64,000 nucleotides of DNA from a virus (IMGVR_UViG_3300009788_000096:31403-95402), one strand, 5' to 3'; positions 12,328 through 56,631 are shown, counted from the first letter of the stretch. Notes: generated from the letters alone by a model not told the origin. Numbers and translations are program-made.

Positions 12328-12335
12328 AGTATATA

Positions 12336-36008: not shown

Positions 36009-36017
36009 GCTATCTCC

Positions 36018-38049: not shown

Positions 38050-38058
38050 ATCTCCTTG

Positions 38059-38151: not shown

Positions 38152-38164
38152 GATCGGTTATAAA

Positions 38165-38253: not shown

Positions 38254-38260
38254 AAGACCG

Positions 38261-39532
38261 TTATAGATCGAGTTCGTCAATGACCTCTTCGTGCAAATCA
38301 TCAAGATCATCTTTATCGAAATCGTCCAAGTCAATATCGAGGTCTTCGTCTTTAATGACTCTTTTCAATTTCTTGTAATTCATCTTTTTGATTTGCTTCT
38401 TGGTGAACTTAGGTTCATCGTCATCATCATCATCGTCATCATCGTCATCGTCATCGTCATCGTCATCATCGTCATCGTCGTCATCGTCGTCATCATCATT
38501 GTCGGCATCGTCATCATCGTCATCATCGTCATCGTCATCATCGTCATCGTCGTCGGCATCTTCCAGTGCCTCCGCGATTTTTTGTTTGACGTCGTCGACA
38601 TCGTCCTTTTTCTTGATTTTGACTTCAAGATCATTTTCGTCGATGAACTCTTTTAGCTCATCCATATCTTCGCAGTCATCGAGCTGTTCAATCAGATCAT
38701 CGTCGTCATCATCGTCATCATCATCACGATCACGAGCTTTTTTCGACTTCTTGTCGTATCCGTAGTATGCCTTGTAGATTTCATCGTAACTGGGATGGAT
38801 GACGATTCCATCAAGAATTTGAGCTTCATCCAGAATGTCTTGATCGATTTCATAATCCCGATCATCGAAAGCATGACCTTCGAAACTGGGATAGTCATTT
38901 TTCGATTTGGCCGGCTCAATTTTAAAGGTGACGGATTTCCCGTTTTTAATATCCACGAAGTTGACGTCCTTCTTCTTCTTTCCCTTCCTTGAAGGACGCT
39001 GGCTTAGTGCCACCAACTTCTTTTCCATATAATGCCAGCTAACATCCCAGACCTGTACACCTTTATCCTTTTCGCCACGATCATAGCAAAGGACATTATA
39101 AAGGTTGCGACGTTTCGGCCAGAGTTTGTTGGCCTTTTTATCTCTGCCCTTTTCAAACAGTGCCTGTTGATGTTCGCAGACAGGACACTTTTTGTCATAA
39201 GTTTTTTCCGGGCAAAGCATAACCTGATTCTGGGCGCCGAGGTTTGTATGGCAATAGAACTCGAAAGTGTATTGCTCTTCGCCCCGAGCGTCGGGATCCG
39301 GGTCTTTCTTGCCTGCGAAGTAAGGAACAATATCTACGATGTGATCACCATCTTTAGGTCTCCAAATCTGGAGATCAAGACTTTCGTCGATAATGGTTTT
39401 AAATCTTCCTTTACTTCTCTCTTGACTCTTTTTAATCCGTTTTTGGAGAGCGCCACTCTTCATCTTTCTGCGTTTGCGGCTACTCTTCAAACTCTTTTTC
39501 TTTTTCTTTTTGGACTTTTTCGACCTCGCCAT
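38261..39532 (-). CDS. gp32-like single-stranded DNA-binding protein with basic N-tail and poly-Asp tract
   Basis: WRPKDG..IV.IVPY, H...CP.....CPVCE (Zn), RNLYNV, GVQVW; acidic C-terminal region; lies between UvsY and UvsX. Confidence 0.75.
   Translation of the reverse strand: MARSKKSKKKKKKSLKSSRKRRKMKSGALQKRIKKSQERSKGRFKTIIDESLDLQIWRPKDGDHIVDIVPYFAGKKDPDPDARGEEQYTFEFYCHTNLGAQNQVMLCPEKTYDKKCPVCEHQQALFEKGRDKKANKLWPKRRNLYNVLCYDRGEKDKGVQVWDVSWHYMEKKLVALSQRPSRKGKKKKDVNFVDIKNGKSVTFKIEPAKSKNDYPSFEGHAFDDRDYEIDQDILDEAQILDGIVIHPSYDEIYKAYYGYDKKSKKARDRDDDDDDDDDDLIEQLDDCEDMDELKEFIDENDLEVKIKKKDDVDDVKQKIAEALEDADDDDDDDDDDDDDDDDADNDDDDDDDDDDDDDDDDDDDDDDDDDDDEPKFTKKQIKKMNYKKLKRVIKDEDLDIDLDDFDKDDLDDLHEEVIDELDL
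38415..38560 (-). repeat. GAY (poly-Asp) trinucleotide tract
   Basis: Long run of mixed GAT/GAC codons in the SSB gene. Confidence 0.9.
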
Positions 39533-41257: not shown

Positions 41258-41274
41258 ATTATAACACGTTTTAT
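41258..41274 (-). promoter_or_regulatory. Phage promoter motif ATAAAAYG-N3-TATAAT
   Basis: Minus strand ATAAAACGTGTTATAAT. Confidence 0.6.
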
Positions 41275-44200
41275 GCTTTCATATCCGGTCCCATTATCCG
41301 CAACAGCTTCACAAAATTTTTCATCCCTGCTAAGAAATGCATCTCATTATCTCGGTTGTGAAGTACTGCTGAGGGATGTATACACCACGCGATCCACGCA
41401 CCATACTCTTCTGACCAAGTTGTCTTCCCGGACATACTAATGATTCCACTTGATCGTTTTAAGAAGTACTGCAGATTAGTATTTCCATAAGCAAGAATTA
41501 ATCTTGGCTTAATTTCTTTTAACTCGTGGTGAAGGAACTTATCTCCACAAATTTGAATTTGCTTCTTATTAGGTTTCCCGCTATTTGACGGATAGCATTT
41601 CCCCATATTTGTAACATGAAACATCTTCCGTTTATAGCCTTTCCGTTTTAAGTACTTCCAAACCTTTTTTCCAGACGCCCCAACGAAACCTTCTCCATCC
41701 CGATCTTCTTCAAATCCGGGCGCTTCACCATCTATAGGTACGTTCCAAATCCCCGGACTGGGCCCGACGGGTGCATCGCATTCATCTCGTAATTCGCAAC
41801 CATCACATCTTTTTAAATCCAGATCAGATCTGAATCTTTTCTTCCTAATAAGCTTCCTCTTCTTTGCGAGTTTTCTTAACTCATTATGATCGCCTTGCAG
41901 GATGGCGTCTAAGCGGTCCAATCTTATCTTCCCATGAAATAGCTTATAAAGTTTTGGATAATTTTCTTTCGGATTAGTCACAACCCGAAATTCAAATTTA
42001 CTTTTGACTTCGTCTGTAATTTGCACTGGATCATTATAGTTATATGCACCGATGGAATCAAGTAATTTTCCAAGGCTTCCTTTATGCTTTATGACTTCAT
42101 CAGATTCTTGTTTATTAAAAAACTTTTTTATTCCTACGTTTTTATCATTTGTTTGTGAAGCCTTAATAGCTTTGACAGGACCGATAGTTTTTACTTCAAC
42201 AAATGGAATATATAATTTTTTCTCCCTCGCAATCCAAGTTGTCGGATCGCTAATACCTACCTTGGGCAGAACGAGAGTTAAGCCAAGTCTATAAGCTTCC
42301 TCGATCATTTCCGCTTTTTTCTCTTTGGAGCCGTAAGTCAAACTTGCGCATATAAATTCGGTTGGAAAGTATTTCTTCAACCATGCGCACCAATAAGCAA
42401 TGATTGCATACTCAACACTGTGCGCTCTATTGAAACCATAGTGTGCCCACTTTTGTAAACCTTCCCAAAATGTTTCTGCTTCATCTTTATCGAATATCTT
42501 TTTCTTTATGCAACCTTTAATGAACTGGCGCTCGTATTTTTTAAATTCTCTTTTGTCTCTCTTTTTACCAATTACTTTCCTTATGTTATCCGCAGTACTA
42601 TAAGGCAAGCCGGCGATCTTATGAATTACTTCCATGACTTGTTCTTGATAAACTAACATTCCATAAGTATCGCCTGTAATTTTTTTATAGGTCTTATGTG
42701 CAGACCATCGCTTGCCATGTTTCCGTTTTACATATTCAGAAGTCATACCACTTTGAAAAGGCCCAGGTCTGACGAGGGCCACAGCATCTGAGATATGCTT
42801 AAATTTTTCGATTCCCATTTCTTTAATAAGGTTGGAGGTAGCATAAGTATTTAACTGGAAAAGACCGACAGTATTCCCATCGTTAATTTCGCTAAGCACC
42901 TTCTCGTCTTCGATGTTTATTTTCGTTAAGTCAATATTTTTGTTATAGTTGATTTTAATAATCCGCATCGCTTCTGCAAGAATGGAAAGTAATTTTAGAG
43001 CCAAGGCGTCCAACTTCATTAAGCCGACATATTCTGTATCTTCCTTTTCCCAGTTGATAAGTAAAGTTCCGTCTTTATCCATTAATACGCAACGGCCGGA
43101 TTTACCTATATCTTCATTGGACACGACAAGCGCAGCGGCATGTTGTCCATAGCCACGTATCTGCCCTTCGATTTTCTTGGCATACTTAATAACGATAGGA
43201 TAACGATCTGCAAAATCCTGTGCCTCTTCATAATTGTCAATGGCTTCCTGTATTTTATCTGGATCTTCGCCGCCATCGTCAATTAATTTATTAAAACTAT
43301 TTACTTCACCATGTGGAACCTTAAATATTCTGGAAACATCTTTTATAACCGACCTTGCTTTCATCCGATTATAACTACTTACTCCCGCGACTTTTCCACT
43401 TCCGTATTTTTCTTCAAGATATTCTCTAACAAGGTGTCGCTTGTTATGTTCAAAGTCAACGTCAATATCTGGATAGTCAACACGATCTTCACTGATAAAA
43501 CGGCTGAAAGGAAGGTTGTGTTTTATGGGATCGACCGCAGTGATTCCAATGAGATAACAAATTAAACTGCCGCCAACAGAGCCACGACCTGGGCCAACAA
43601 GAATATCATTTTCTTTACACCAATGTACTAAATCCCATACGATCAGAAAATACCTGACAAATTTCTTTTTGACTATAAGCCGATATTCCTCTTCAAATCG
43701 ACTATGATATTTGTGGCTGTTCTTGATCTTTTTTTCAAATTTATTTCGGTATCCTTTGTAGACAAGTTTTCTAAGGAAAACATTTTCTTCACCCGGATTG
43801 ACTTCCTTAAGGCGAGGCAAATTGACTTCCTGTTTTGGGATTCTAAAATCAGAACACTTCTCACCAATCTCCAATGTATTATAAAGGTATTCCTTTTTAT
43901 AGAATCCCAAATTCCGCAATGCCCTTTTCATTTCTAAGGCAGTGCGAAGATGAAGATTTCTAATTGCAAACTTCCATCTTTTAGGATCATCCCATGTGGC
44001 TTTAGTTTGGAGGGCAAGTAAAACTTCTTGCGCTTTATAGTCTCCGCGACTTATGTAATGACAGTCGTTTGTGGCAATTATTTTTGAGCCGGAATCCCTT
44101 GCTAAATAAATGACATCATTATTGACTTCAACTTGCCTCTTCATTTTATGTGGCATGACTTCGCAATATATGTCGTCAGGAATGCTGCTATGCAGGGCTC

Positions 44201-44648
44201 GCCATAAATCAATACCACCATCCATTTCCACAAACGTACTTGTGCAAGCTGTGCCAATACAGAGTCCTTTGAAGTGGTTGAGCAACCAGTCATATTGGAT
44301 TCTCGGCCTATAATAAAAACCGTCAAGATTGGCCATAGTCATTAACTTACAAAGGTTTTTAAACCCTCGTTTATTCTTAATCCAAAGGGTCACATGTCCA
44401 TTTTTTCTTTTCTTTGCTTCAACGTCTTCAACCATATATGCTTCACAGCCGAGAATCGGTTTTATTCCATGGGCATCACATGCATTTTGGAATTTAATCA
44501 ATCCATCCATTTTTGCATGGTCAGTAATTGCCAAATACTTATAACCGAGCAAAGCAGCTTTACGAGCATAGTTATCTACCGTGCCGAATCCATCTAAGTG
44601 GCTATACTCGGTGTGGACATGCAAGTGAGCGAAGTCAGCGTTTATCAT
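41271..44648 (-). CDS. dnaE: DNA polymerase III alpha (family C) with C-terminal family-4 uracil-DNA glycosylase domain
   Basis: PHP domain HLHVHTEYS/TDH; GRGS, PDIDVDF, HAAA, KLD, YGFNRAHS; then CxxC, GEAPG, FVGASG, TN..KC.P, HPSAVL. Confidence 0.95.
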   Translation of the reverse strand: MINADFAHLHVHTEYSHLDGFGTVDNYARKAALLGYKYLAITDHAKMDGLIKFQNACDAHGIKPILGCEAYMVEDVEAKKRKNGHVTLWIKNKRGFKNLCKLMTMANLDGFYYRPRIQYDWLLNHFKGLCIGTACTSTFVEMDGGIDLWRALHSSIPDDIYCEVMPHKMKRQVEVNNDVIYLARDSGSKIIATNDCHYISRGDYKAQEVLLALQTKATWDDPKRWKFAIRNLHLRTALEMKRALRNLGFYKKEYLYNTLEIGEKCSDFRIPKQEVNLPRLKEVNPGEENVFLRKLVYKGYRNKFEKKIKNSHKYHSRFEEEYRLIVKKKFVRYFLIVWDLVHWCKENDILVGPGRGSVGGSLICYLIGITAVDPIKHNLPFSRFISEDRVDYPDIDVDFEHNKRHLVREYLEEKYGSGKVAGVSSYNRMKARSVIKDVSRIFKVPHGEVNSFNKLIDDGGEDPDKIQEAIDNYEEAQDFADRYPIVIKYAKKIEGQIRGYGQHAAALVVSNEDIGKSGRCVLMDKDGTLLINWEKEDTEYVGLMKLDALALKLLSILAEAMRIIKINYNKNIDLTKINIEDEKVLSEINDGNTVGLFQLNTYATSNLIKEMGIEKFKHISDAVALVRPGPFQSGMTSEYVKRKHGKRWSAHKTYKKITGDTYGMLVYQEQVMEVIHKIAGLPYSTADNIRKVIGKKRDKREFKKYERQFIKGCIKKKIFDKDEAETFWEGLQKWAHYGFNRAHSVEYAIIAYWCAWLKKYFPTEFICASLTYGSKEKKAEMIEEAYRLGLTLVLPKVGISDPTTWIAREKKLYIPFVEVKTIGPVKAIKASQTNDKNVGIKKFFNKQESDEVIKHKGSLGKLLDSIGAYNYNDPVQITDEVKSKFEFRVVTNPKENYPKLYKLFHGKIRLDRLDAILQGDHNELRKLAKKRKLIRKKRFRSDLDLKRCDGCELRDECDAPVGPSPGIWNVPIDGEAPGFEEDRDGEGFVGASGKKVWKYLKRKGYKRKMFHVTNMGKCYPSNSGKPNKKQIQICGDKFLHHELKEIKPRLILAYGNTNLQYFLKRSSGIISMSGKTTWSEEYGAWIAWCIHPSAVLHNRDNEMHFLAGMKNFVKLLRIMGPDMKA

Positions 44649-44863
44649 GCTGCTGCCTCCTCCATCTTTTTAAGCTTTTTGAGATGGAAGTTAATGTACT
44701 TCATTTGAGCCGATGGCGCTGCCTTTTTGATTTTAGCAGCAAGTTTCATCTTGGAAGCAAGATAGTTATAACGTCTTGTCAATCTTATAATTGACTTCCC
44801 CAATCCATCTTCCTCTTCCAAATCAATTAAGCTCCTGATGTTTCCCTTCATGTGCTTTTTCAT
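44645..44863 (-). CDS. Hypothetical protein
   Basis: SD AAGGAG; ATGA coupling on both sides. Confidence 0.55.
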   Translation of the reverse strand: MKKHMKGNIRSLIDLEEEDGLGKSIIRLTRRYNYLASKMKLAAKIKKAAPSAQMKYINFHLKKLKKMEEAAA

Positions 44864-45048
44864 TTTTTCTCCTTTGCTAATGTAGACATTTGCCAAATTG
44901 ATCTTCCGCCCCAATCAGAATGTGATTCATACGTTCCGCATTCTGGGCACCAGTTATGGTAGGTGCTAATATCTCCCGGTATGCCAGTACTTGATGAAGC
45001 TATTGGCAGCATTTTTTTACATTTGCATTTTGGATTTGGACATTCCAT
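44860..45048 (-). CDS. Small Zn-ribbon protein
   Basis: CPNPKC ... WCPECG; SD GGAGGAG. Confidence 0.55.
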   Translation of the reverse strand: MECPNPKCKCKKMLPIASSSTGIPGDISTYHNWCPECGTYESHSDWGGRSIWQMSTLAKEKK

Positions 45049-45051
45049 CTT

Positions 45052-46044
45052 TTACTCCTCCTTTAAATCAAACCAAGTTAAAAGGCCAGAATTACTTTGC
45101 GGTTCAAAGAATTCCCGGTGAACAGGCATAGCCAGAGGCTCTCCAGCCGTCGCTCGCTGGGCAATACTATAGGTTGCCCGTGATGGTTCTGGAAGTGACT
45201 TCTTTCCCATCTTATCAGGAAGAAAGCCAACCCTATAACTAATGGCATCACACCACTTACAGGGAGTAAAGTCTCTACTATTATTATACAGTATTTTACG
45301 GCATGCGTTGAAGTAGCGGTTGTTCCAGATTTTTTGAAGTGGTTCTTCCAAAGCATTGCCACACTTGTACCACCCAACAAAGTCATTGCAGCATATAGCT
45401 ATATTGCCATCCCATCTAATACTTAACTCTCTAAATGGTTTGGCACATCTTTTCATCATTGGAGCTCTTCTTGGAAGAGAAGCACAACCGCAATGGTTGT
45501 TCAGTTTTGCATGTGTGCCTTTCTTCGCTTTGGAAATATCTTCAACAAATATAATATGGTGATCGTTTATCTCATATCGGTTGTGCGGTGAATACTTCTT
45601 CTCCCTTGGATAATGGTGATAGGCCAAGTCTTCCCGCGAAAGCTGGTCAAGAATTTTCTTGCTAAAGGGATTGTGTTGATAGTCATCTATAGCGATGACA
45701 TTAATACCAAGGCCAAACAGAAGAAATTCCATTTTTTTCTTTGCGTTCCTCACAAGTTTAAAACCGTTTGTGGTTATCATCAACTGATTTTTAACATTTG
45801 CGAAAGCTGCAAATATTTCACGATGTAAAGGATTCGCTGTTGGCTCGCCGTGCATAGCAAATTCAATTTTACTATTCCATCCGGTCTGTTCAATGTTCGC
45901 TGCGATTGTCTTCGCATTGTCAAGAGAGAGGAACTTGTAACACCCTGCCTTCTCTCTTATACCTTTGATCCCACAAAAGTCACACATTAGATTGCAGCCC
46001 TCAGTCAATTCGATTTGGATAGTAAATGGAGATTGCTGTTTCAT
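45052..46044 (-). CDS. Radical SAM/SPASM(Twitch)-domain protein
   Basis: ELTEGCNLMCDFC, HGEP, TTNG; CAKPFRELSIRWDG..ICCND...PCKWCD. Confidence 0.9.
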   Translation of the reverse strand: MKQQSPFTIQIELTEGCNLMCDFCGIKGIREKAGCYKFLSLDNAKTIAANIEQTGWNSKIEFAMHGEPTANPLHREIFAAFANVKNQLMITTNGFKLVRNAKKKMEFLLFGLGINVIAIDDYQHNPFSKKILDQLSREDLAYHHYPREKKYSPHNRYEINDHHIIFVEDISKAKKGTHAKLNNHCGCASLPRRAPMMKRCAKPFRELSIRWDGNIAICCNDFVGWYKCGNALEEPLQKIWNNRYFNACRKILYNNSRDFTPCKWCDAISYRVGFLPDKMGKKSLPEPSRATYSIAQRATAGEPLAMPVHREFFEPQSNSGLLTWFDLKEE

Positions 46045-46865
46045 AGTATTCCTTTAAACCTTTCCTTTCTGGTTCGCATAGAAAACGCATCAAGATATGC
46101 TTTCTTCCATGCGACTTTTAAGTCATATTTTCTCCAACCCTCATTTGACTTTTTATCCGAAGCTTTTCTTTCAATAAGCCTTGTATGCTTCGGAAATAAC
46201 TTGTGAACCGTTTTAATACTTTCCAATTGATTCTTATCGGTTCTATAAGTGGCACAGCCACCTTTAGTCCCGGGAGTTTGGTGCACTGCATATTTATAAG
46301 TGATTCTATTCTTGTATCCGGCGGAAAGTAAACCGAGAGTTATTTGCATATCCGTTAAAAAGACAGAATGATCACAGCGAAGCCCCAGATGATAGAATAG
46401 CCAACGATTAAAACCGAAAACACTATAAACGTTTTGGACTTCCTTATAGTCAAGATCAGGTTGAGTAAAGTTAAGTCCACGAAAACTCATTCCAACCTGT
46501 CCAAGATTATCGTGCTTGAGCCAATCTGTTAATAAGAGGAACATATCTTTCACATCTGATCTTTTAGCTGGCCTGAGTTTTTTATCCAAATCTCGCCGGG
46601 AGAAAGTACAATCATCATCCAGCATAAAGATATATTCTTCCGGAGAAGATTCGATGATATACTGACGCTTATAGGCTATGCCTTTCTTGCCTACATGGAC
46701 AATAACGTTTCGCCCTGCTTCCCGGAATTCTTGCTCCTCTTCTGGGTAGACAACGAAGCGAACCATGTTTCTGATTATAAGTGGAAGGGATTCATAAGTC
46801 TTCTGTTTGTGAATCCCACGATTATAAGTAAACAAATAAAAGCCAACATCTTTATAGGAATCCAT
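46041..46865 (-). CDS. TET/JBP-associated glycosyltransferase (TAGT/GREB1-like), paralog 2
   Basis: TYNR, KGIAYKRQYI, MLDDD, D.QITL.LL..GYKN, GGC..YRT; TAATG coupling. Confidence 0.75.
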   Translation of the reverse strand: MDSYKDVGFYLFTYNRGIHKQKTYESLPLIIRNMVRFVVYPEEEQEFREAGRNVIVHVGKKGIAYKRQYIIESSPEEYIFMLDDDCTFSRRDLDKKLRPAKRSDVKDMFLLLTDWLKHDNLGQVGMSFRGLNFTQPDLDYKEVQNVYSVFGFNRWLFYHLGLRCDHSVFLTDMQITLGLLSAGYKNRITYKYAVHQTPGTKGGCATYRTDKNQLESIKTVHKLFPKHTRLIERKASDKKSNEGWRKYDLKVAWKKAYLDAFSMRTRKERFKGIL

Positions 46866-47692
46866 TAGAAATACTCCGTGATTTTTTTCTTCCGCCCAGT
46901 TTTGAAAATCTTCTTCCACTGGATCTGAAGATCGGTTCTTGTTTTACTATCAAACCCTTTCCACTGAACTTTACTTTCCTTTTGAACAGGTTTGGCATAG
47001 CCCGGAAATTCTTTAGCTATAAGATGTGCGCTGATATGCTGCATTTCGCTTGTCCTATAGAGTGAGCATCCGCCCTCGTCCCCGGATTGCTTTTGACTCC
47101 AACAATACTGGTAAGTCACGCGGTTGGCATAGCCAAGTTGAAGTAAAGATAAGGTCACTTGAAAATCTTCCATAACAAGGCGTCGTTTATGCTTGCGCTC
47201 AAGATAGTCAAAGGCAATACCGTATTTCCTTTTTAACTCTTTCATTTTCCTGACATTATAACCGTAAGCATTATTCATCCGGGTGACATCAATAAAATCT
47301 TCATCGATCCGATTATTGCCAAATCTTTGACTGATGCCGACATGCACAAATCCGTCTTCGAGCCAGTTTAGAAGAAGATCAAACATCCGCTTCAAATCTT
47401 TACTACCGCAGCGGACAAGCTTTCCGTTTGCACGGACATCGAACTGCATATCGTCGTCGAGCATAAGAGCATAAGGATAAATGGAGTTTTCCAGAATCCA
47501 TTGTCTCGTTTTACTTATGCCTTTTAGTGGACACTTTAAAACATTCTGTTTTCCATAGCGACGTCGGTAAGCGACTGCATCCCTTTGATCGACAACAATG
47601 AAAGTGTTTTTCTTCCATGACTTAGGAATACTTTCAAACGTGGGCTGATTGTCTTTCCTCCTAAAGCTTGGAATAAAAATCCCTAATCCCAT
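46865..47692 (-). CDS. TET/JBP-associated glycosyltransferase (TAGT/GREB1-like), paralog 1
   Basis: IFIPSFRR, GISKTRQWI, MLDDD, MEDFQVTLSLL..GY.N, GGCSLYRT, I.WKK. Confidence 0.8.
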   Translation of the reverse strand: MGLGIFIPSFRRKDNQPTFESIPKSWKKNTFIVVDQRDAVAYRRRYGKQNVLKCPLKGISKTRQWILENSIYPYALMLDDDMQFDVRANGKLVRCGSKDLKRMFDLLLNWLEDGFVHVGISQRFGNNRIDEDFIDVTRMNNAYGYNVRKMKELKRKYGIAFDYLERKHKRRLVMEDFQVTLSLLQLGYANRVTYQYCWSQKQSGDEGGCSLYRTSEMQHISAHLIAKEFPGYAKPVQKESKVQWKGFDSKTRTDLQIQWKKIFKTGRKKKITEYF

Positions 47693-48620
47693 TCGATTGC
47701 CTCCTCTCATTTTTTATTTTGACTTCGATCCTGTCAATTGTTTTCCAATCAAGAAACGATGGTTTATGGAGAGTAAATTTTCCCATACGATCTGGCAACA
47801 GACCTATTCTATATAAGCGATTGTCGCAACCATAACAAATAGTGAAGTTCCTTCCTTCATGATGAAGTATTCTTCGGGCAGCTTTGAATTTTCTATGCTG
47901 CCAAATATTTTCAAGCGGCATATCATGTATATTGACTATGGCATGTTCGTGTACCCAGTCATAACAACACAGTAAAACCATACCATCATTTGCTATATTC
48001 AATTCTCTAAATGGTCGATGGCAGGTCTTCTTTGCATATTTATAATTAGGTGGCCCTGCGTTGCATGCAGTATTGCTTAAACATCGCTCCTTGATCTGAG
48101 CTTTACTTATATCAGGATACACAACTACATAATGATCCTTTGTGGATGGCTTCGTATACGTAGGCATTTCAGGGTACACGAATACTTTATACTTCCCTTT
48201 ATACTTCTTCAAAATTTTAGGAACGAAGCCGGAATGCTCGTAGTTATCTAAAGCAATAACATTTACATACTTCAAAATACGATCTATCCTCTTCGTTGGA
48301 TCCTTTAATAACGGGCCACCATTTGAAGTAGTAAAGATATATGACTTAGGAAAAGCTTGTCTCAATTTCCTAAAATACTTCACATGATTTTTATTTAATA
48401 AAGGTTCACCATGCCCCGTACATTCAATCTTATTAGTCCAGCCGGTGATAGTCAACTGTTCTATTATAACATTAAATGTTGCCTCCGTCATAAACTTCAA
48501 ATTCCCCGGTTGTTTGCGAATACTGTGGATAGGACAGAAGTCGCAATATAAATTACATCCCTCCGTGAACTCAAGTTTGACATGGGTTGGCGGCAATTGT
48601 ATTTTAAGAATGGGCTTCAT
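47661..48620 (-). CDS. Radical SAM/SPASM(Twitch)-domain protein (paralog of 45052..46044)
   Basis: EFTEGCNLYCDFC, GHGEPLLN; CHRPFREL.I..DG...CCYD...CYGCD; shared R.G.LPD.MGK. Confidence 0.9.
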   Translation of the reverse strand: MKPILKIQLPPTHVKLEFTEGCNLYCDFCPIHSIRKQPGNLKFMTEATFNVIIEQLTITGWTNKIECTGHGEPLLNKNHVKYFRKLRQAFPKSYIFTTSNGGPLLKDPTKRIDRILKYVNVIALDNYEHSGFVPKILKKYKGKYKVFVYPEMPTYTKPSTKDHYVVVYPDISKAQIKERCLSNTACNAGPPNYKYAKKTCHRPFRELNIANDGMVLLCCYDWVHEHAIVNIHDMPLENIWQHRKFKAARRILHHEGRNFTICYGCDNRLYRIGLLPDRMGKFTLHKPSFLDWKTIDRIEVKIKNERRQSNGIRDFYSKL

Positions 48621-48807
48621 GAATTTTTGCTTTCCATTTTCTGATTAATCCTATGATTGTGCAAACAGGACACCAAGTCAAAAGCTGATGGTTTTTCTTC
48701 CATAGTTTTAATACTGGTTCCTTTACAATGTAATCGACCCATCCATTGTTTCGGCCAGTATGTATCAACGGATGAAAAACAGCATGAGCAAAATTTAATA
48801 CTTTCAT
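48604..48807 (-). CDS. Hypothetical protein
   Basis: SD GGAGG; coupled. Confidence 0.45.
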   Translation of the reverse strand: MKVLNFAHAVFHPLIHTGRNNGWVDYIVKEPVLKLWKKNHQLLTWCPVCTIIGLIRKWKAKIHEAHS

Positions 48808-50414
48808 AATTTTAACCCCTCCTTTTTTAATACATTATTTAGTCTCACATAGACTTTACTTTCTTTCACACCTTTATAAACCAGTTTGTCTTTTTCATCA
48901 AAAGTAATAACAGGCCTACCGCGAAAGTTTTTATATCTCATAAGTAAAACTGCTGCACAATGATTTTGACTTCTCCTCCAACCGAAAGAACCTTCGGCCA
49001 CTACGTCGCCCACCCTCTCCGGCACTTTAAAATTCTTAAATGACTTAGGTATAAAGTCTTCATCAGCGAAGACATTGCATTTGTCTCGCTCAATACCAAA
49101 CTTTACTCCCCTTGCAAGCGACATAATTTCTTTCAAATCTTTCAACTTGAATTCATGTGTTTTGATATAGAAATTCTGAGTGTTAATTGGATCATAGTCA
49201 TCGTGCACATAACCCGCTTTCTTGCATTCGTCAAATATAGGTGTCCCGTGGTATAAACGGAAGTACTGCGGGGAAACCCACGAAAATTCCTGTGTCACGT
49301 CGATGATAGTTTTTAATACTTTGGAAATGGTATCAACAAACGGATAGCCAAGTATAATAGTGGTCGGCCGGAACTTCTCATACCTACTCCAATTCTCCAT
49401 TGCTGCTTTCCAGTTTTCCAAAGTAAAGTCTTTCCCCATGTGAGCTAATACTTCTTTATTCGAACTTTCCAACGGATAGCACATGTTCCTAAAACCAGCT
49501 AACCACATCAATCTGCTCACCATTTTATCAGCAGTAACATACATGGGAACTCCGTGGATTATTTCAAATCTTAGCTTCTCTGGAATAGTGTTGATAACAT
49601 CTTTACAAATTCTTCTAAGATATTTAATTCCTTTACTGCCGGGACAGAGATTATCATCTTCGATAAGGAAATGTTTAGCACCCCATTCCAAGCGATACCA
49701 ATTAATTTCAGCAATGACTCGTGGCACACTTTTTGCTCTCCACTTTTTTCCGGACTGTTTATGAACGACACAGAAGGAACACCGATGCGGACAGCCACGA
49801 CTAAAAGTCACATACATTTGCTTTGTCTTCCGATAATAACTTTCGTCAAGAAGTAATTTCTTTCTCGGGAAGGGCAGTGAATCCATATCCTGAACAAGGT
49901 CAAACAAGACTATACGAGGCGTTGATTTCTTTTTACCGGAAATATACTTGTAAAAAGATAACTCACTTTCACCCATAAACACATGACTTACATCGGCATG
50001 CTTCAAAACATGCTCTGGATAAAAAGTGGCGTGGATGCCTCCCATTACAACATCCGCATCCGGCTTTATCTTCTTGATAAGCTTGACTAACTTATAAGCT
50101 CCAGTATAATTCGAAGACATCATGGATGAAACCCCGATAGTATTATGGTATCTATCAAGATTGAGTCTTAACCATAATCTCATTTGAAGATCGGTATATC
50201 CCCAGCGAAGATAAGTTGGCTGTCCAGTATCCAGCTTTTCCGGCCGAACCGTTTTATGTTTTTCTGGCGGATAGTGAAAATCTTTGACTGCTGCCTCGAT
50301 CCCTTTACTTTCTAAGTATGCAGCCATGTAAAGCGGACCGAGAGGAAAAGGCGGTCGTGGATTCCAGTACAACTTACCTTCGTACGGCGGATAAAGTAGT
50401 AGCACGGGTTTCAT
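48804..50414 (-). CDS. Cobalamin-dependent radical SAM enzyme (class B methylase-like)
   Basis: LLLYPP, PLGPLYMAAYL, GGIHAT, GESE (B12 domain); SRGCPHRCSFC; EDDN. Confidence 0.9.
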   Translation of the reverse strand: MKPVLLLYPPYEGKLYWNPRPPFPLGPLYMAAYLESKGIEAAVKDFHYPPEKHKTVRPEKLDTGQPTYLRWGYTDLQMRLWLRLNLDRYHNTIGVSSMMSSNYTGAYKLVKLIKKIKPDADVVMGGIHATFYPEHVLKHADVSHVFMGESELSFYKYISGKKKSTPRIVLFDLVQDMDSLPFPRKKLLLDESYYRKTKQMYVTFSRGCPHRCSFCVVHKQSGKKWRAKSVPRVIAEINWYRLEWGAKHFLIEDDNLCPGSKGIKYLRRICKDVINTIPEKLRFEIIHGVPMYVTADKMVSRLMWLAGFRNMCYPLESSNKEVLAHMGKDFTLENWKAAMENWSRYEKFRPTTIILGYPFVDTISKVLKTIIDVTQEFSWVSPQYFRLYHGTPIFDECKKAGYVHDDYDPINTQNFYIKTHEFKLKDLKEIMSLARGVKFGIERDKCNVFADEDFIPKSFKNFKVPERVGDVVAEGSFGWRRSQNHCAAVLLMRYKNFRGRPVITFDEKDKLVYKGVKESKVYVRLNNVLKKEGLKL

Positions 50415-50423
50415 CGGTTTCTC

Positions 50424-50642
50424 CTATTCTTCTATTAGGGTTATCTGTATTTGTGGATCGTTTAATATTTTAAACTGCATGTTTTTAATTGACTGATTGA
50501 CTTTCTCCTTTGCCCCAGCTTTAGCTTGTTTTAGTACCTGCCATATTTCAGTATCGGCGCTCCAAGTATCAGGCAATTCAAGTTCCACCAATACTTGCGC
50601 CACTGCTATTGCTCTTACTTTCTTCGGTTCGTCAGACTTCAT
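50424..50642 (-). CDS. Hypothetical protein
   Basis: SD AAGGAG. Confidence 0.5.
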   Translation of the reverse strand: MKSDEPKKVRAIAVAQVLVELELPDTWSADTEIWQVLKQAKAGAKEKVNQSIKNMQFKILNDPQIQITLIEE

Positions 50643-50653
50643 TTTTTTCTCCT

Positions 50654-50878
50654 TTACATTTCCTTTATATTTTTTAGTTTTTCATCTCCCCATTTAATAT
50701 CAAGAATATATGTTTTTATAATTTTGCCAAAAGGTGCTCCGGTTTCTGTTCCAATTGTAACTTCATAAATAGGATAACCAGTTTGTTTTAAAAAAGTATC
50801 CATTGCCTCTTGTAAGTCATTTTTGAAATTGCTTAATGACTCTTCAATTAAATCTTTTGGTGTCTGGTCTTCCATCAT
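50654..50878 (-). CDS. Hypothetical protein
   Basis: SD GAGGAGG. Confidence 0.5.
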   Translation of the reverse strand: MMEDQTPKDLIEESLSNFKNDLQEAMDTFLKQTGYPIYEVTIGTETGAPFGKIIKTYILDIKWGDEKLKNIKEM

Positions 50879-50887
50879 TCCTCCTCT

Positions 50888-52312
50888 CTAAGTTGTTAAG
50901 TCAATCCCTTCATCGCTCCAACGATCCTCGTATTCGCTTGGTATATACTTGTATACGAGGTTCTCATCTTCGTCAGTAGTAAATGGAAGAATCTTTCCGT
51001 TGAAGTAATTCCTGGGATTCCCAGGACTTCTCAGATTATTCCAGACCGTCCGTGCTATGTTTATATAACCTATTTTATATCTTTCACTGGCGGTCTTATC
51101 AGAAACGCTTACATGATCTTGGCCAAGTATAACTGATTTTAAATAGGTATCTTCATCAGGTTTAAATACGTGCTTAAAGCGGAACTTATAAATCCTTCCA
51201 CTTGTTTGGTATACTCTTCGTGCTTCCTTTAAATGATAAGTCAATTGGTTCTTCGTCCAGTTCTGCATTTCCTTATTTTCAGGATACTTGTCTGGCATGC
51301 CGCAGCAGGAACCAGTCATATTTAACTCTTTGAAGTCAGGGTCACTGCAAGCGAAGATAATATCATTTTCCAAACAAAACTTATAAATGGTCTTAACGAA
51401 TCTTTCCTTAACAAGTCGATTCAAACGGAGATAGCCACCTCGCTCGCTGGGACTAAGCGCCTTAAAGTACTTCATAACATCTTTGACACCGATTAATTCA
51501 CCAAGCCATTTATATCTTTTCATCAATGCTTCATTTGACCGAGAGTCAATAGCGGTAAACTCCATTGAGATAGCTTGTATTCCAGCTTCCAAAGATTTCT
51601 CCAATAACTCGTCTATACCTTTGTCTGTGACGCCTATGATATAAGGTCTAAGGCGAAGTATAGTAAAATAACCCATGTCACCTAATAACTTCATTGCCTT
51701 TAACCGCCGGCTGGGGACAGGCACACCGATTTCTACTTGTCTCGCCATATCATCATTGCCAGTAACCATGCTGATTTGAAATGCGAAATTCTTCTGGTCA
51801 GCATACTTTTCAAAAAGCTTTGTAAACTTAGGACGGAAAACGGCTGACCCTTTAAAGCTAAATAAAGTAGGATATGACTCTTCGGCCAAAGCTTGAATTA
51901 TCTTATACCCTACATCGTTTGCCTTTTCAAAGTTGCAAAACGGATCAGCCATTCCACCCCAGTGAAACAGAAACCGCTTCTTGATGAAGTGTTTATAAAT
52001 ACTTCGCTGACGGGAATCTCCGGGGTTTCCATGGATTGTGTCAATAGTCTTTTCCCAATTAACAGAGTGGAGCTTTTCGTTAAAGCTGGTGTTAGTTGTT
52101 TTAAACATATATGCAAAACAATAGGTGCAGCCAAGCGAGCAATGACTATAGTGATCGAAAGTCATAGGCATGCTGCAGTCCATATATTCCGAAGATATAC
52201 GTGGGCTGATGTAATGCCGCATCGCTTTTTCATCTCCCATAACCAAGCCTTTGTTTTGCTTCACAAATGCTTGACTTTCCCTAATGATTTCTGTTCTAAT
52301 TTTGTCTTTCAT
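50888..52312 (-). CDS. Radical SAM protein, SPL (spore photoproduct lyase)-like family
   Basis: DHYSHCSLGCTYCFA, GGMADPF, E.GVP.PSRRL.AM..L...G, LRLRPYIIG; C-terminal CCG. Confidence 0.85.
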   Translation of the reverse strand: MKDKIRTEIIRESQAFVKQNKGLVMGDEKAMRHYISPRISSEYMDCSMPMTFDHYSHCSLGCTYCFAYMFKTTNTSFNEKLHSVNWEKTIDTIHGNPGDSRQRSIYKHFIKKRFLFHWGGMADPFCNFEKANDVGYKIIQALAEESYPTLFSFKGSAVFRPKFTKLFEKYADQKNFAFQISMVTGNDDMARQVEIGVPVPSRRLKAMKLLGDMGYFTILRLRPYIIGVTDKGIDELLEKSLEAGIQAISMEFTAIDSRSNEALMKRYKWLGELIGVKDVMKYFKALSPSERGGYLRLNRLVKERFVKTIYKFCLENDIIFACSDPDFKELNMTGSCCGMPDKYPENKEMQNWTKNQLTYHLKEARRVYQTSGRIYKFRFKHVFKPDEDTYLKSVILGQDHVSVSDKTASERYKIGYINIARTVWNNLRSPGNPRNYFNGKILPFTTDEDENLVYKYIPSEYEDRWSDEGIDLTT

Positions 52313-52698
52313 AATACAATCACCTTTCTTATGGTTTTAACAGAAAACCGTTTTTCATGCTTATCCCAAATGAGTCTGCCCTTATCGAACAGGCGAAGTA
52401 CTTCCATAAGGAACTCGATATCGTATGAGTTATTATCAAGGTACTTATTGACTTTGAAGTAATCCGCAAACTTGTCGATCCATTCTTCCTCTGGGAATGT
52501 GAGAGTTATACTTCTCTTTTTGAACATGGACCGGCCCACTTTAGACCCTTTATAAACAGGAAGTGGAACAGGTTTTAAAAGTGCCTCTTCGATTTTCCGG
52601 ACTTCCGCTTCGGATTTATCCTTAATTAAATCCGAAAACCTTTGCACAATAGTTGACTCCCGCGTTTTTCCAGAAACAACTTCAGTAAGGTCTTCCAT
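52309..52698 (-). CDS. Hypothetical protein coupled to the radical SAM gene
   Basis: TAATG and ATGA overlaps. Confidence 0.6.
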   Translation of the reverse strand: MEDLTEVVSGKTRESTIVQRFSDLIKDKSEAEVRKIEEALLKPVPLPVYKGSKVGRSMFKKRSITLTFPEEEWIDKFADYFKVNKYLDNNSYDIEFLMEVLRLFDKGRLIWDKHEKRFSVKTIRKVIVL

Positions 52699-53072
52699 TA
52701 TTCTCCTTCCCTAAGTCCAAAATATACTTCTGGACTTTTACCTGATTTTTTTAATAGTTCAATCGTTTGCCTGGCATGTGCTTCCGAGCAACATAAATGA
52801 CTCGAAAGTTTTTCTATCAGCTTTGCATTATACTTCTTGTTTCCTTTATTGAAAGCATACTTAATATAAGGTGCACTTCTCCTCGGTTTGACTCCATGTT
52901 TTAATAGGCTTTCTATTGCCCAGTTTGGAATCTTACCTTGATAGCGGTTTGCATTAACCGATAGAAGATAAGTTTCACGGAGGAAACTTAGAAATCTAAT
53001 TAACATATAGATATTTTTAATTTCAATATCTCGTCCCTCCAATACTGCTTTTGCTTCATCCCATGGTTTCAT
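52698..53072 (-). CDS. Putative clamp-loader small subunit (gp62-like)
   Basis: KPWD...YMLIRFLS...N...YIKY...LSSHLCCS..A.....LL pattern; near the clamp-loader gene. Confidence 0.45.
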   Translation of the reverse strand: MKPWDEAKAVLEGRDIEIKNIYMLIRFLSFLRETYLLSVNANRYQGKIPNWAIESLLKHGVKPRRSAPYIKYAFNKGNKKYNAKLIEKLSSHLCCSEAHARQTIELLKKSGKSPEVYFGLREGE

Positions 53073-53392
53073 TTTGGAACCCGACCGCAATCAAGATGGT
53101 TTGATGGTTTGTCGAAAGGCTTTCCGCAGTGATGGCAATCGGTGGACAAAGAACCGTTTGAAACTTGTACTTCTCTTATCATTGCCATTTTCATTTTTCT
53201 CAATTGTTCATCTATACTGCGGAGAAACTCCTTTTTTGCAGATTCAAAGTTAAGTGTAAATCCCGGGTGCAGTGGATCAAAGTCTGCAACTGTGACTTGT
53301 ACTTCTTGTGCTTGATCCACTTCTCCTTTTTGTTCTCCATCGTCTTCTGCCCATAGTTTGCCGATATAGATAGTTGCCCATATATCACTCAT
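53069..53392 (-). CDS. Hypothetical protein
   Basis: SD GGAGGTG. Confidence 0.5.
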   Translation of the reverse strand: MSDIWATIYIGKLWAEDDGEQKGEVDQAQEVQVTVADFDPLHPGFTLNFESAKKEFLRSIDEQLRKMKMAMIREVQVSNGSLSTDCHHCGKPFDKPSNHLDCGRVPK

Positions 53393-53528: not shown

Positions 53529-53774
53529 TTACCTCATAAATGACTTGTCAATAATTTCTTTTGAAACTAACTGAAATTCAAACAAGGCTTGAGCTAATTT
53601 TTTTACTTTCTTCATTTGGTTTTGACCCTGTATCCATAGAGTTGGGTCAATCAGTGGCCCCAAAGTATCCGCTTGGTCAATTGCGGAAATAAATTTTTGT
53701 AAAGGTAATTCACTGACAATTTGAGACATTGTAATTATTTTAGTTTGTGTATCAATATAATCTTTTTTGTCCAT
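53529..53774 (-). CDS. Hypothetical protein
   Basis: SD AGGAGG; TAATG coupling. Confidence 0.55.
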   Translation of the reverse strand: MDKKDYIDTQTKIITMSQIVSELPLQKFISAIDQADTLGPLIDPTLWIQGQNQMKKVKKLAQALFEFQLVSKEIIDKSFMR

Positions 53775-54697
53775 TAGAATATAACCTCCTTTTCCAAGGC
53801 GTCCATTATTTCGAGACAACAAGCACTGGCATTGATCTCACGGTCGGCAATGGTCTTGTCACGCCAAAGATATTCCGCAATAACAAGCGCGACCTGGGCC
53901 CTTTGTTCATTGTCTTTCAATTGGCCAAGGAAGTCATTACTGAATAAACCCTTATAAACCCAAGTGAAGTCAGTCAAGCCAACAAACGTTTCCCGCAGTT
54001 CTCCGATGTGGCCTTTTTTAATTAACTGGTATGTTTTGTCAATGTTAAACGAAGACAGAATATCTTCAAGCTTTAGAGTCCCGCTTATACTCGCTGCTTG
54101 CATGTTATTCATTATAGTCCTAACATCGGGGGCAAACCGTTTAACAAGTATGCGAAGAGTATCCTTGTTGAATTCGATATCTTCTTCTTCAAGGATACCT
54201 GCCATTAACTTATTTATCCGCTTAAACTTGAGCGAGTCAAATTTGAAAAGCATGCACCGGCTATAAATAGGTTCGATTATTTTATCAAACTCATTTGCCG
54301 TGAAGATAAAGCGACAGTTTTTATGGTATCGTTCAATGGTTCCTTTTAGTGCCATCTGGGCTTCTGGAGTCAATCCATCCGCCTCATCCAGAAGCACGAT
54401 GTTTAACTTATTTTTTTTGGCACGTTGTGATCTGGCAAAGTGTTTGACTTTAGTTTTAATTGTCGCAATCCCACGATCAGAGGAACTCGCATTTAATATA
54501 AGCGAGGCAGATGCACATAGCCTGATAAGGATCATTCCCAAAGTAGTCTTTCCACTTCCAGCAGGTCCATGAAATAAAAGGTGTGGAATCTGCTTCTCTT
54601 TTATATACGTTTTAAAAGCTTTTTTATAAGATACAGGAAGCGAGAGCTGGCTTAACTTTGTTGCCCGATGCTTTTCATACCATATTAACTCTTTCAT
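53774..54697 (-). CDS. Clamp loader AAA+ subunit (RFC small / T4 gp44-like)
   Basis: WYEKHR, IPHLLFHGPAGSGKTT, LNASS.RGI, LDEAD, AQ.AL, CRFIFTAN, SRC. Confidence 0.9.
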   Translation of the reverse strand: MKELIWYEKHRATKLSQLSLPVSYKKAFKTYIKEKQIPHLLFHGPAGSGKTTLGMILIRLCASASLILNASSSDRGIATIKTKVKHFARSQRAKKNKLNIVLLDEADGLTPEAQMALKGTIERYHKNCRFIFTANEFDKIIEPIYSRCMLFKFDSLKFKRINKLMAGILEEEDIEFNKDTLRILVKRFAPDVRTIMNNMQAASISGTLKLEDILSSFNIDKTYQLIKKGHIGELRETFVGLTDFTWVYKGLFSNDFLGQLKDNEQRAQVALVIAEYLWRDKTIADREINASACCLEIMDALEKEVIF

Positions 54698-55756: not shown

Positions 55757-56554
55757 TTACCGATCCTCCTCTTCCACCCCAACTACAGGCATCAGTGCCC
55801 ATGCAGTTGACTTACGAGTTATCATGGTTGGTTTCTTTTTAGCGAAGCGCATGACCGGCGGATCTTCGGCGTCATATTCAATAACATTGAAGATATGGGC
55901 TAAATGCTCGCCATTGAGTTTAAAGCCAAAAGCCTTTTTGGATTTACCCTTGACTTTAGCTTTACTTTTTAATCGGAGCTGGTGATCGTTCTCCCCTCCG
56001 CATACAACGGTGATGTATTTTTTTCCGTCGAATTCGATCGTGATATCCTTGTCTTTAAGCATACCGATGTAGCTGAGAAAGTCTTTGATAATTTTCTCCG
56101 AGATGATAACCTTATACTTCATAAGGCCAGATAACTTTTTCAGGGGATCGACGGGCTTATCAACATCATCATCGTCTATCAGACGGGTGGCTATGAGCTC
56201 CGGGTCTGTGAGAAGATAGTTCAACTTCCGTTGTCCATCTATCCGCTTGATGTTCATCTGGCGGGAAGTATTTTTCACATTCATCTTTTTATCATTGTTC
56301 ATGGACAAGAATTTGATAAGCAATTCCAGATTGCCAAGTCCAAAAGATCCACTAATTGATTTACTTGTGATCTTGGATTTGGTTATAACCATTAAGCTAT
56401 TGGTAATATCGACGGCCTCAATACTGCCCTGGCCGGCCGAAATATCCAATACGCACTCTTCCATAACCCCTGCAAGGTGACAATCTTTTAACATCCCTAA
56501 CAGGAGGGAAGTAAAGATAACGGAGTCACTGGATTTCTTTTTTTTCTTGGACAT
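55757..56554 (-). CDS. Putative sliding clamp (gp45/PCNA/beta-like)
   Basis: About 265 aa, two-domain alpha/beta pattern, FGLGNL..LIKFL and C-terminal ALMPV; upstream of the clamp loader. Confidence 0.55.
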   Translation of the reverse strand: MSKKKKKSSDSVIFTSLLLGMLKDCHLAGVMEECVLDISAGQGSIEAVDITNSLMVITKSKITSKSISGSFGLGNLELLIKFLSMNNDKKMNVKNTSRQMNIKRIDGQRKLNYLLTDPELIATRLIDDDDVDKPVDPLKKLSGLMKYKVIISEKIIKDFLSYIGMLKDKDITIEFDGKKYITVVCGGENDHQLRLKSKAKVKGKSKKAFGFKLNGEHLAHIFNVIEYDAEDPPVMRFAKKKPTMITRKSTAWALMPVVGVEEEDR

Positions 56555-56576
56555 ATTGGCACCTCTTTTTAGAGTC

Positions 56577-56631
56577 AAAAAAAAAGCGACAGCGAGCAAT
56601 CCCAATGAAGGGAAAGATCGCTGTCACTTTT
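56577..56631 (-). terminator. Intrinsic terminator
   Basis: Minus strand GTGACAGCGA...TCGCTGTCGC followed by 9 U. Confidence 0.65.

Follow-up and report, generated by a model that had tools for sequence, protein, structure and literature searches.

We examined a 64,000-nucleotide stretch of viral DNA (IMGVR_UViG_3300009788_000096:31403-95402, hereafter the window), which forms the right-hand 64 kb of the 95,402-bp genome of an uncultured subsurface phage (CheckV completeness 100%), and identified in its replication module a block of genes at positions 45052-52312 that is probably a DNA hypermodification island. The block encodes four radical S-adenosylmethionine (SAM) enzymes and two TET-associated glycosyltransferases (TAGTs), and the most likely target of their modification is thymine. 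At its head stands R474, a radical SAM protein of the photoproduct-lyase branch. We propose, at roughly even confidence for and against, that R474 serves as the entry enzyme, activating the thymine methyl group by radical chemistry, and that the other enzymes add sugars to the activated base and rework them. The case is built on the assignment of the island enzymes, on the genes found beside their relatives in other viral contigs and on a search of the complete genome for the known entry enzymes of pyrimidine hypermodification.

Radical SAM enzymes and glycosyltransferases of the island

The island genes all lie on the minus strand and form a single tightly packed run between a clamp loader and a DnaE polymerase with a UDG domain (open reading frames, ORFs, were called with our own longest-ORF script under translation table 11, as they were for the related loci described below). 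Read in the direction of transcription, the clamp loader is followed by three small ORFs, R474, two small ORFs, a B12-binding radical SAM enzyme (B12-rSAM), one small ORF, the radical SAM enzyme TwA, TAGT-1, TAGT-2, the radical SAM enzyme TwB, two small ORFs and the polymerase. A first-pass annotation of the window had placed four radical SAM enzymes and two TAGTs between clamp loader and DnaE, and Pfam, PHROG and NCBIfam matches together with sequence motifs confirmed both this content and its coordinates. Each of the four radical SAM proteins contains one CxxxCxxC motif, at residue 17 in TwB, 22 in TwA, 208 in B12-rSAM and 58 in R474. The Pfam radical SAM family (PF04055, gathering cut-off 29.5 bits) is exceeded by TwA (36.0 bits), TwB (37.1 bits) and B12-rSAM (46.4 bits), R474 scoring below the cut-off at 25.9 bits. 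The two pairs of paralogues described in the first-pass annotation were also recovered, with 31% identity between TAGT-1 and TAGT-2 (E 2e-33) and 37% between TwA and TwB (E 2e-62).

TwA and TwB had been labelled as SPASM enzymes, and both match the Pfam SPASM family (PF13186; 44.1 and 39.7 bits, respectively). A full SPASM domain carries a seven-cysteine motif for two auxiliary clusters. In an alignment of 14 family members, however, the invariant cysteines outside the SAM motif were limited to five (C200, C218, C219, C262 and C265), and these reproduce the four-cysteine spacing of the one auxiliary cluster of BtrN (C200, C218/C219, C262, C265). The family profile matched BtrN (4m7t) with an E-value of 1.5e-24 in two stretches spanning both domains, compared with 3e-7 for the next solved protein and 1e-6 for YydG, the best of the peptide maturases against the same profile. 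Because of the five invariant cysteines and the BtrN match over both domains, we assign TwA and TwB to the Twitch type, with one auxiliary cluster, in place of the SPASM label. BtrN is the 2-deoxy-scyllo-inosamine dehydrogenase of butirosin biosynthesis and acts on a free cyclitol. By homology, TwA and TwB would be expected to oxidise a C-H bond of a sugar or cyclitol, and one may speculate that the C218-C219 pair, itself invariant, offers a place for a cysteine that donates hydrogen. In a tree of 57 Twitch sequences, the two proteins fell into separate, well-supported clades, the nearest relatives of TwB coming from R474-bearing loci (L138, L057 and L085). The public gene call for TwA (P0001) has 276 aa, or 87% of the 319-aa frame, and homologues of 320-332 aa share the longer frame; the deposited TwA protein may lack its SAM cluster. 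We also noted a SPASM radical SAM protein fused to a GT92 domain (P0017), which is distinct from the TAGT-Twitch fusion described below.

Both glycosyltransferases exceeded the cut-off of PF20691 (27.5 bits), TAGT-1 with 62.1 bits (9e-17) and TAGT-2 with 34.9 bits (1.9e-8), and both matched phrog_842 (4.4e-45 and 2e-31, respectively). They share an aligned LDDD motif, which we take to be the DxD metal-binding motif of GT-A enzymes. A Shine-Dalgarno-like GAGGAGG precedes the seventh codon of TAGT-1, at which the protein probably starts (position 47692). The start of TAGT-2 is probably the ATG at 46865, codon 19 of the listed frame, which overlaps the TAGT-1 stop by one base, in agreement with the overlapping or coupled frames reported earlier. 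The TAGT name is said to originate with Iyer et al. in 2013. According to its Pfam description, the family is named after its association with TET/JBP; in the 95-kb genome studied here, the two TAGTs were accompanied by neither TET/JBP nor a hydroxymethylase. Among cultured phages, TAGT-1 has its closest relative in gp22 of PhiJL001 (31% identity), whose gene lies two genes from one annotated as similar to the dUMP hydroxymethylase of SPO1. Used alone as a query, TAGT-1 retrieved no relative from viral contigs.

The fourth radical SAM protein, B12-rSAM, shows the class B architecture put forward in the first-pass annotation, its B12-binding domain (PF02310, 50.0 bits against a cut-off of 32.1) joining the radical SAM domain above the Pfam thresholds, and its cluster motif reads CPHRCSFC. 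It could be placed in no characterised subfamily (BchE, HpnJ, PhpK, TokK, CysS and others), the best NCBIfam score being 81.3 bits against a cut-off of 575 and PDB matches being no stronger than 2.6e-5. The leading NCBIfam matches were a P-methyltransferase family (5.7e-23), a ladderane lipid family (7.4e-20), BchE (8.9e-20) and HpnJ (1e-18), all far below cut-off, and a comparison with GenBank phages gave weak matches only.

Genomic context of Twitch and R474 relatives

Of 199 IMG/VR relatives of the Twitch family found with the family alignment, 80 were fetched with their flanks, and the genes in them were counted with our own hidden Markov models (HMMs). This set was not selected for any entry enzyme. 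TET/JBP was searched in 49 records, and many of the records are fragments, which limits the sampling. A Twitch ORF was found in 74 of the loci. Thymidylate-synthase homologues were present in 64, proteins with the helical domain of 5-hydroxymethyldeoxyuridine (5-hmdU) kinase (HMUDK) in 55, TAGTs in 50 and R474 in five (the seed-family ORF was not called in six of the 80 loci, nor in one of the 53 R474 loci considered below). Representatives of the thymidylate-synthase and HMUDK families were checked against Pfam (PF00303, 1.3e-19; PF18723, 2e-52). The usual order in phages with a PolA polymerase is HMUDK-helical protein, TAGT, Twitch enzyme, thymidylate-synthase homologue, PolA and HD hydrolase. 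In one locus (L016:3324-5063), a single 579-aa ORF between the HMUDK-helical and thymidylate-synthase-homologue genes fuses a TAGT (residues 1-256) to a Twitch enzyme (268-579), and another, L069, has the order TAGT, Twitch, Twitch, TAGT, which can be likened to the mirror arrangement in the window. L069 and L145 appear to be one sequence from two collections, with the same coordinates and scores for every modelled ORF. Five contigs are common to the Twitch and R474 sets (L003/L130, L057/L102, L058/L090, L059/L093 and L061/L092), and counts are given per set.

The thymidylate-synthase homologue, R474 and TET/JBP (the last in three of the 49 records searched) did not overlap in the Twitch set. 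Eight loci had none of the three partners; in four of them the sequence breaks off shortly behind the Twitch gene, and the TET/JBP search covered three of the eight. Twitch genes linked to R474 formed at least three clades interleaved with those linked to the thymidylate-synthase homologue, with six label changes, five of them forced by well-supported branches. The same tailoring enzymes have thus moved between the two contexts several times, which suggests that both contexts offer the same kind of substrate. By its genomic association, we conclude that the TAGT/Twitch pair belongs to thymidine hypermodification.

Two side observations concern the partners in this set. The Tet_JBP matches come from three provirus-classed records (L071, L073 and L075; E 1e-20 to 8e-19), and in L073 the matching region (contig 9258-9740) lies within ~3 kb of the Twitch gene. 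The HMUDK partner (L019:1440-2336 and 54 other loci) has ~298 aa, the whole of which is spanned by PF18723, and no P-loop domain was detected in it; it may bind DNA containing 5-hydroxymethyluracil (hmU) rather than phosphorylate it.

R474 carries its SAM cluster motif at C58-C62-C65 and, in an alignment of 63 sequences, the further invariant cysteines C46, C313, C336 and C337; its C-terminal extension of ~220 aa bears invariant cysteines. The first-pass annotation had called the protein spore photoproduct lyase (SPL)-like. The label applies loosely, at the level of the 'DNA repair photolyase' branch, with NCBIfam matches to PA0069 (1.5e-14) and Rv2578c (4e-12) and an hhalign alignment with gp53 of phage M6 (91.4%, E 9e-7, covering the radical SAM core only). 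Beyond that level the label does not hold, since the family cut-offs were not reached (53.8 bits against 360 for PA0069 and 45.8 against 430 for Rv2578c) and neither sequence nor profile searches found a PDB match, the solved SPL included. R474 also matched phrog_13321 (3.6e-12), and its homologues are named 'DNA repair photolyase' by JGI. A large protein collection contained 402 homologues, with 53-91% identity over the full length among the 120 listed, and 64-91% of the family is viral according to Atlas cluster labels. A comparison with 50,697 GenBank phage records returned one weak partial match only, and we therefore found no cultured phage with R474. Some homologues contain inteins, recognised by Pfam Hint and intein-splicing domains (P0059, P0070 and P0078; L120, L131 and L132, with ORFs of 779-1121 aa), and in one locus (L124:11281-13083) a second intein-bearing radical SAM protein follows R474.

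Lee et al. (2021; PMC8989533) describe M6 gp53, the one characterised relative, as an SPL-like radical SAM enzyme that acts on modified thymine in DNA, a glycinyl-thymine isomerase in a downstream step, and state that no radical SAM enzyme had previously been found to install a DNA modification. According to the same source, SPL chemistry proceeds via a thymine-methyl radical.

We then assembled 53 IMG/VR loci carrying R474, with 10 kb of flank on each side, 50 records of which were used for entry-enzyme searches. Where the upstream genes are present, the order is (clamp loader)-orf130-orf129-R474-variable cassette-polymerase, in which the polymerase may be DnaE, a UDG-PolA fusion or PolB; a clamp-loader homologue lies within the flanks of 42 of the 53 loci. 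The cassette contains a TAGT in 24 loci, a Twitch enzyme in 15, an amino acid:DNA transferase in seven (PF18724, 9.4e-22) and B12-rSAM in two, and weaker matches include a P-loop kinase, an amidotransferase, an FkbM methyltransferase, a DUF2284 metal-binding protein and a myo-inositol-phosphate synthase. Both Twitch types are present in L138, which reads R474, TwA, TAGT, TwB, DnaE. In the two loci with B12-rSAM (L089 and L112), its gene comes after R474, without a TAGT, and is followed by that of an unassigned ~460-aa protein. PDB profile searches with a ~460-aa cassette protein (d44) and a ~350-aa protein (c29) gave nothing usable; from a likeness of motifs, both may be GT-B transferases. The amino acid:DNA transferase, used as one query, has a homologue in 376 GenBank phage records, of which 164 are Salmonella phages. 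In that one enzyme stays constant while the tailoring genes after it vary in combination, the R474 loci match the layout that Lee et al. described for thymidine hypermodification (PMC8989533). As a side observation, the cassette of L105 combines a myo-inositol-1-phosphate synthase (11998-13095; PF01658, 3.9e-35) with an FkbM methyltransferase, an amino acid:DNA transferase and a P-loop protein, which hints at a cyclitol-bearing base.

Amino acid:DNA transferases and TAGTs are thought to need a hydroxymethyl group, or a phosphorylated one, on the base (PMC8989533). No Tet_JBP domain (PF12851) was found in the 50 R474 records, by a search that was able to detect the family, since it was positive in three of the 49 Twitch records. 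Two complete records (G036 and G050) combine the transferase with R474 but have neither of the known sources of 5-hmdU. Because complete genomes carry a transferase or TAGT together with R474 and lack both a thymidylate-synthase homologue and TET/JBP, some other source of the handle is needed.

To our knowledge, every characterised phage route to a hypermodified pyrimidine starts either from a thymidylate-synthase homologue acting on the nucleotide or from an O2-dependent TET/JBP enzyme acting on DNA. The first-pass annotation had recognised no TET/JBP or hydroxymethylase in the window and had suggested that the rest of the genome be searched for these, for thymidylate-synthase-like genes and for DNA methyltransferases. 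A six-frame search of the whole genome found no PF12851 (Tet_JBP), PF00303 (Thymidylat_synt) or PF18723 (HMUDK_hel), with the proviso that the built-in controls gave no signal for two of the three families, PF18723 among them. For this reason we added a Pfam hmmscan of 126 ORFs (every ORF of 70 aa or more, and two below that length), which detected none of these families and no DNA methyltransferase. Likewise, our HMMs for the thymidylate-synthase homologue, the HMUDK helical domain and the amino acid:DNA transferase, which were built from the related loci, found nothing in this genome. The absence noted for the window thus extends to all 95,402 bp.

Layout of the region and neighbouring genes

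The positions of the island genes and of their neighbours are collected in Table 1.

Table 1. Features of the island and adjoining replication genes, numbered from the first nucleotide of the window
Feature	Position	Strand	Description
DnaE polymerase with C-terminal family-4-like UDG domain	41271-44648	-	Pfam DNA_pol3_alpha 3e-78, PHP, finger, UDG 2.3e-20; downstream boundary
orf89	44645-44914	-	small ORF
orf62 (Cys-rich)	44860-45048	-	small ORF
TwB (rSAM-B)	45052-46044	-	330 aa, BtrN-like Twitch radical SAM
TAGT-2	46041-46919	-	292 aa as listed, GT-A glycosyltransferase, PF20691
TAGT-1	46865-47710	-	281 aa, GT-A glycosyltransferase of TET-associated family, PF20691
TwA (rSAM-A)	47661-48620	-	319 aa, BtrN-like Twitch radical SAM
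orf67	48604-48807	-	between B12-rSAM and TwA
B12-rSAM	48804-50414	-	536 aa, class B radical SAM
orf72 and orf74	50424-50878	-	between R474 and B12-rSAM
R474	50888-52312	-	474 aa, photoproduct-lyase-branch radical SAM
orf129	52309-52698	-	small conserved protein
orf129 and orf130	52309-53090	-	two small conserved proteins between clamp loader and R474
Clamp loader	53774-54697	-	AAA 4.7e-12, DNA_pol3_delta2 6.5e-11; upstream boundary
orf282, PCNA-like sliding clamp	55757-56605		no Pfam match; 24-sequence profile against archaeal PCNA, full length, E 0.003

The small ORFs of the region fall into two groups. No homologue of orf89, orf62 (both at a cut-off of E 1e-5), orf72, orf74 or orf67 was found in the 53 R474 loci; orf67 had no family match in Pfam or PHROG, and orf72 matched phrog_15409 (6.2e-6). 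Homologues of orf129 and orf130, on the other hand, occur in 22 and 20 of the 53 loci, respectively. Both are small proteins without cysteine or metal motifs and had no Pfam or NCBIfam match, and a profile of orf129 found no solved structure. An alignment of the clamp loader against viral contigs returned 80 generic RFC-like loci (L170-L249; 31-37% identity) and none of the known close relatives. The possibility of a hidden dioxygenase in orf282 was considered and rejected, the protein being a PCNA-like clamp.

The UDG domain of the polymerase (~41330-41740; PF03167, 2.3e-20) has GEAPG and HPS motifs and an N-terminal cysteine cluster, and the motifs are conserved in relatives. In relatives with a PolA polymerase, the domain is found at the N-terminus of the polymerase, so that it travels with R474 across polymerase types (see also L096, L099, L106, L109, L117 and L130). 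In bacteria, a link between SplB-like radical SAM enzymes and UDG has been described by Aravind's group (accessible part of PMC3765255). We also considered DNA containing deoxyuridine, which was rejected as the polymerase-fused UDG retains its GEAPG and HPS motifs.

Upstream of DnaE, a recombination set at 33952-39532 comprises an Mre11-like phosphoesterase, a Rad50-like ATPase, a 5'-3' exonuclease, a RecA-like protein and a gp32-like single-stranded DNA-binding protein. Elsewhere in the genome, a Pfam scan of 85 ORFs gave matches of one ORF to PARP (4.9e-7), ART-PolyVal (2.2e-5) and the anthrax lethal factor N/C-terminal domain family (5.9e-5), and further matches to GT9, GT2 and two class I methyltransferases.

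A proposed pathway, its alternatives and its relation to known systems

In the pathway that we propose, the 5'-deoxyadenosyl radical of R474 would abstract a hydrogen at the C5-methyl group of thymine, in DNA or possibly in a nucleotide, and the cysteines C46, C313, C336 and C337 may hold a second iron-sulfur cluster that accepts a second electron. The allylic cation would then be captured by water, or by another nucleophile, to give 5-hydroxymethyluracil or an equivalent handle without O2. TAGT-1 and TAGT-2 would transfer one or two sugars to this handle, the BtrN-like TwA and TwB, one per transferase, would oxidise or epimerise a sugar carbon, and B12-rSAM would add a further change, perhaps a C-methyl group. 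The first-pass annotation had outlined an anaerobic route of this kind. Its outline gains partial support from the presence of TAGT and Twitch genes in DNA hypermodification clusters, from the absence of a known entry enzyme and from the SPL-like enzyme that heads a variable cassette in 53 loci. It had spoken of hydroxymethyl-pyrimidines in general, a target that we narrow to thymine in view of the absence of a cytosine methyltransferase and the position of the TAGT-1 relative beside an SPO1-like dUMP hydroxymethylase. More tentatively, R474 could represent a third, oxygen-independent route, a thymine C5-methyl oxidase that replaces dUMP hydroxymethylase and TET/JBP and feeds modular cassettes in anaerobic phages. 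Its product here would be a doubly glycosylated thymine with sugars oxidised or epimerised by the two BtrN-like enzymes and altered by B12-rSAM, a base not yet seen in any DNA.

Several observations weigh against R474 as an entry enzyme. Its radical SAM score, below the Pfam cut-off and far below those of NCBIfam, amounts to weak family membership, and gp53, the sole relative with a characterised function, is a downstream isomerase and not an entry enzyme. PF00303 co-occurs with R474 in four of the 50 records (in none of the eight that are at least 90% complete), and the comparison of contexts is confounded by phage lineage: thymidylate-synthase homologues accompany PolA, and R474 is found mostly in phages with DnaE or UDG-PolA. 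In 17 of the 53 loci R474 stands without any of the five other modelled families, and sequence identity is much higher for R474 (53-91%) than for the cassette genes (35-41%); both observations fit a housekeeping or repair function equally well. Cellular SplB-like enzymes, moreover, are tied to repair and to PCNA-binding proteins (PMC4929162 and PMC3765255, in their accessible parts), and in archaea their genes adjoin that of a PCNA-binding protein (PMC4929162). R474 might accordingly be a replication-linked repair or processing enzyme of this type, with the gap between it and the polymerase acting as a hot spot for cassette insertion and the glycosyltransferases using a handle made by an unrecognised enzyme, or some other acceptor. 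Its place in the replisome block near the clamp loader and the PCNA-like clamp, and the inteins of some of its relatives, would agree with such a function. This is the main alternative, though we regard it as less likely than an entry function, given that complete genomes with a transferase or TAGT beside R474 need a source of the handle and that no other conserved candidate was seen, orf282 being a clamp and orf129 and orf130 small proteins lacking cysteine or metal motifs. In addition, in the gene orders as we read them, R474 and the polymerase are separated by one or more ORFs of at least 100 aa in every locus that reaches the polymerase. The precedent of gp53, the only characterised relative, could also mean that R474 works downstream, rearranging or tailoring a thymine that is already modified. 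This appears improbable, as R474 is constant while its would-be substrates vary between sugar, amino-acid and other cassettes, as the likeness to gp53 is limited to the radical SAM core and as such a role would leave the first handle without a source.

The remaining alternatives concern the acceptor of the sugars, and both are countered by the association of TAGT and Twitch genes with thymidine hypermodification genes. The same phage has a late-gene glycosylation set, with the GT2, GT9 and class I methyltransferase matches, which offers a rival target for glycosylation and is a further point against a DNA substrate; BtrN, for its part, has a free cyclitol as its substrate. The enzymes of the island, transferases and radical SAM proteins alike, could build or tailor glycans for virion proteins or a host surface polymer. 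We consider this very improbable, because the island sits in the replication module on the strand opposite to the late genes, because in the majority of the 80 loci its Twitch and TAGT relatives have HMUDK-helical and thymidylate-synthase-homologue genes as neighbours and because the cultured relative of TAGT-1 belongs to an hmU cluster. SPASM and Twitch enzymes often modify peptides, and with weak NCBIfam matches to peptide maturases and five small ORFs of 62-89 aa in the block, one could also envisage that the Twitch enzymes and glycosyltransferases mature a small ribosomal peptide, glycocin- or sactipeptide-like, encoded by one of these ORFs. The small ORFs, however, have no homologue in the 53 related loci, the Twitch profile favours BtrN over YydG by many orders of magnitude in E-value, and the genomic partners are enzymes of nucleotides and DNA, so that we attach next to no weight to this explanation.

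With the thymidine clusters of phages M6, PaMx11 and ViI (PMC8989533), the island shares the post-replicative decoration of the thymine C5-methyl group proposed for it and a modular, combinatorial set of genes located among those for replication. The M6 cluster, too, involves an SPL-like radical SAM enzyme, gp53, and related R474 loci share with these clusters the amino acid:DNA transferase (PF18724). In contrast to the M6 and ViI types, neither a dUMP hydroxymethylase nor TET/JBP, a 5-hmdU DNA kinase or an amino-acid transferase was found in the genome studied here. Sugars are the predicted additions, and the SPL-like enzyme is a constant component that opens the block, unlike the downstream isomerase gp53. 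Phage glycosylation systems based on TET/JBP (5mYOX) resemble the island in having GT-A enzymes beside replication genes that are predicted to glycosylate a hydroxymethyl-pyrimidine in DNA, and, according to the accessible parts of PMC8256090 and 10.1101/2023.12.21.572611, in secondary transferases that give di- and trisaccharides. They differ from it in that the genome studied here has neither a dioxygenase nor a cytosine methyltransferase. A term search of the accessible parts of these two papers and of a T-dioxygenase paper (PMC13229309) found no description of radical SAM partners.

At the level of single enzymes, BtrN (4m7t/4m7s) is the best solved relative of TwA and TwB over both domains and has the same four-cysteine auxiliary-cluster spacing, yet the identity is ~25% or less, TwA and TwB have an extra invariant cysteine (C218-C219), and their partners are DNA-type glycosyltransferases instead of aminoglycoside genes. 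R474 shares with SPL, SplB-like proteins, PA0069 and Rv2578c its NCBIfam neighbourhood and the 'DNA repair photolyase' name, and differs from SPL, PA0069 and Rv2578c in lying far below their cut-offs, in its cysteine-bearing C-terminal extension and in being a phage family. In kinetoplastids, base J is made by a JBP hydroxylase and the glucosyltransferase JGT, which convert thymine to hmU and then to glucosyl-hmU in a route that needs O2 and 2-oxoglutarate. The hydroxylase is missing here, and a radical SAM enzyme is proposed in its place.

Our literature search, which did not cover the supplementary cluster lists of the papers, found no published account of a thymine entry enzyme of the radical SAM type or of a TAGT and Twitch pair. 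For an SPL-like radical SAM enzyme in DNA hypermodification there is one published precedent, M6 gp53 (PMC8989533). The locus described here is the fullest version that we have seen: in a complete genome, a single operon-like block encodes four radical SAM enzymes along with two transferases. Pyle et al. (2023; 10.1101/2023.12.21.572611) report, in the accessible part of their text, that ~65% of viral glycosyltransferase contigs have no known entry enzyme and that some of the neighbouring genes are annotated as viperins. If the proposal is correct, a radical SAM entry enzyme would account for part of these contigs, and it would add a new reaction type, the C-H functionalisation of a DNA base, to radical SAM chemistry. 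An anaerobic and cofactor-simple functionalisation of thymine, together with sugar-tailoring radical SAM enzymes, would also provide tools for DNA labelling. For the phages themselves, it would show how viruses of strict anaerobes make hypermodified bases, and it would matter for predicting their resistance to restriction and to CRISPR cleavage.

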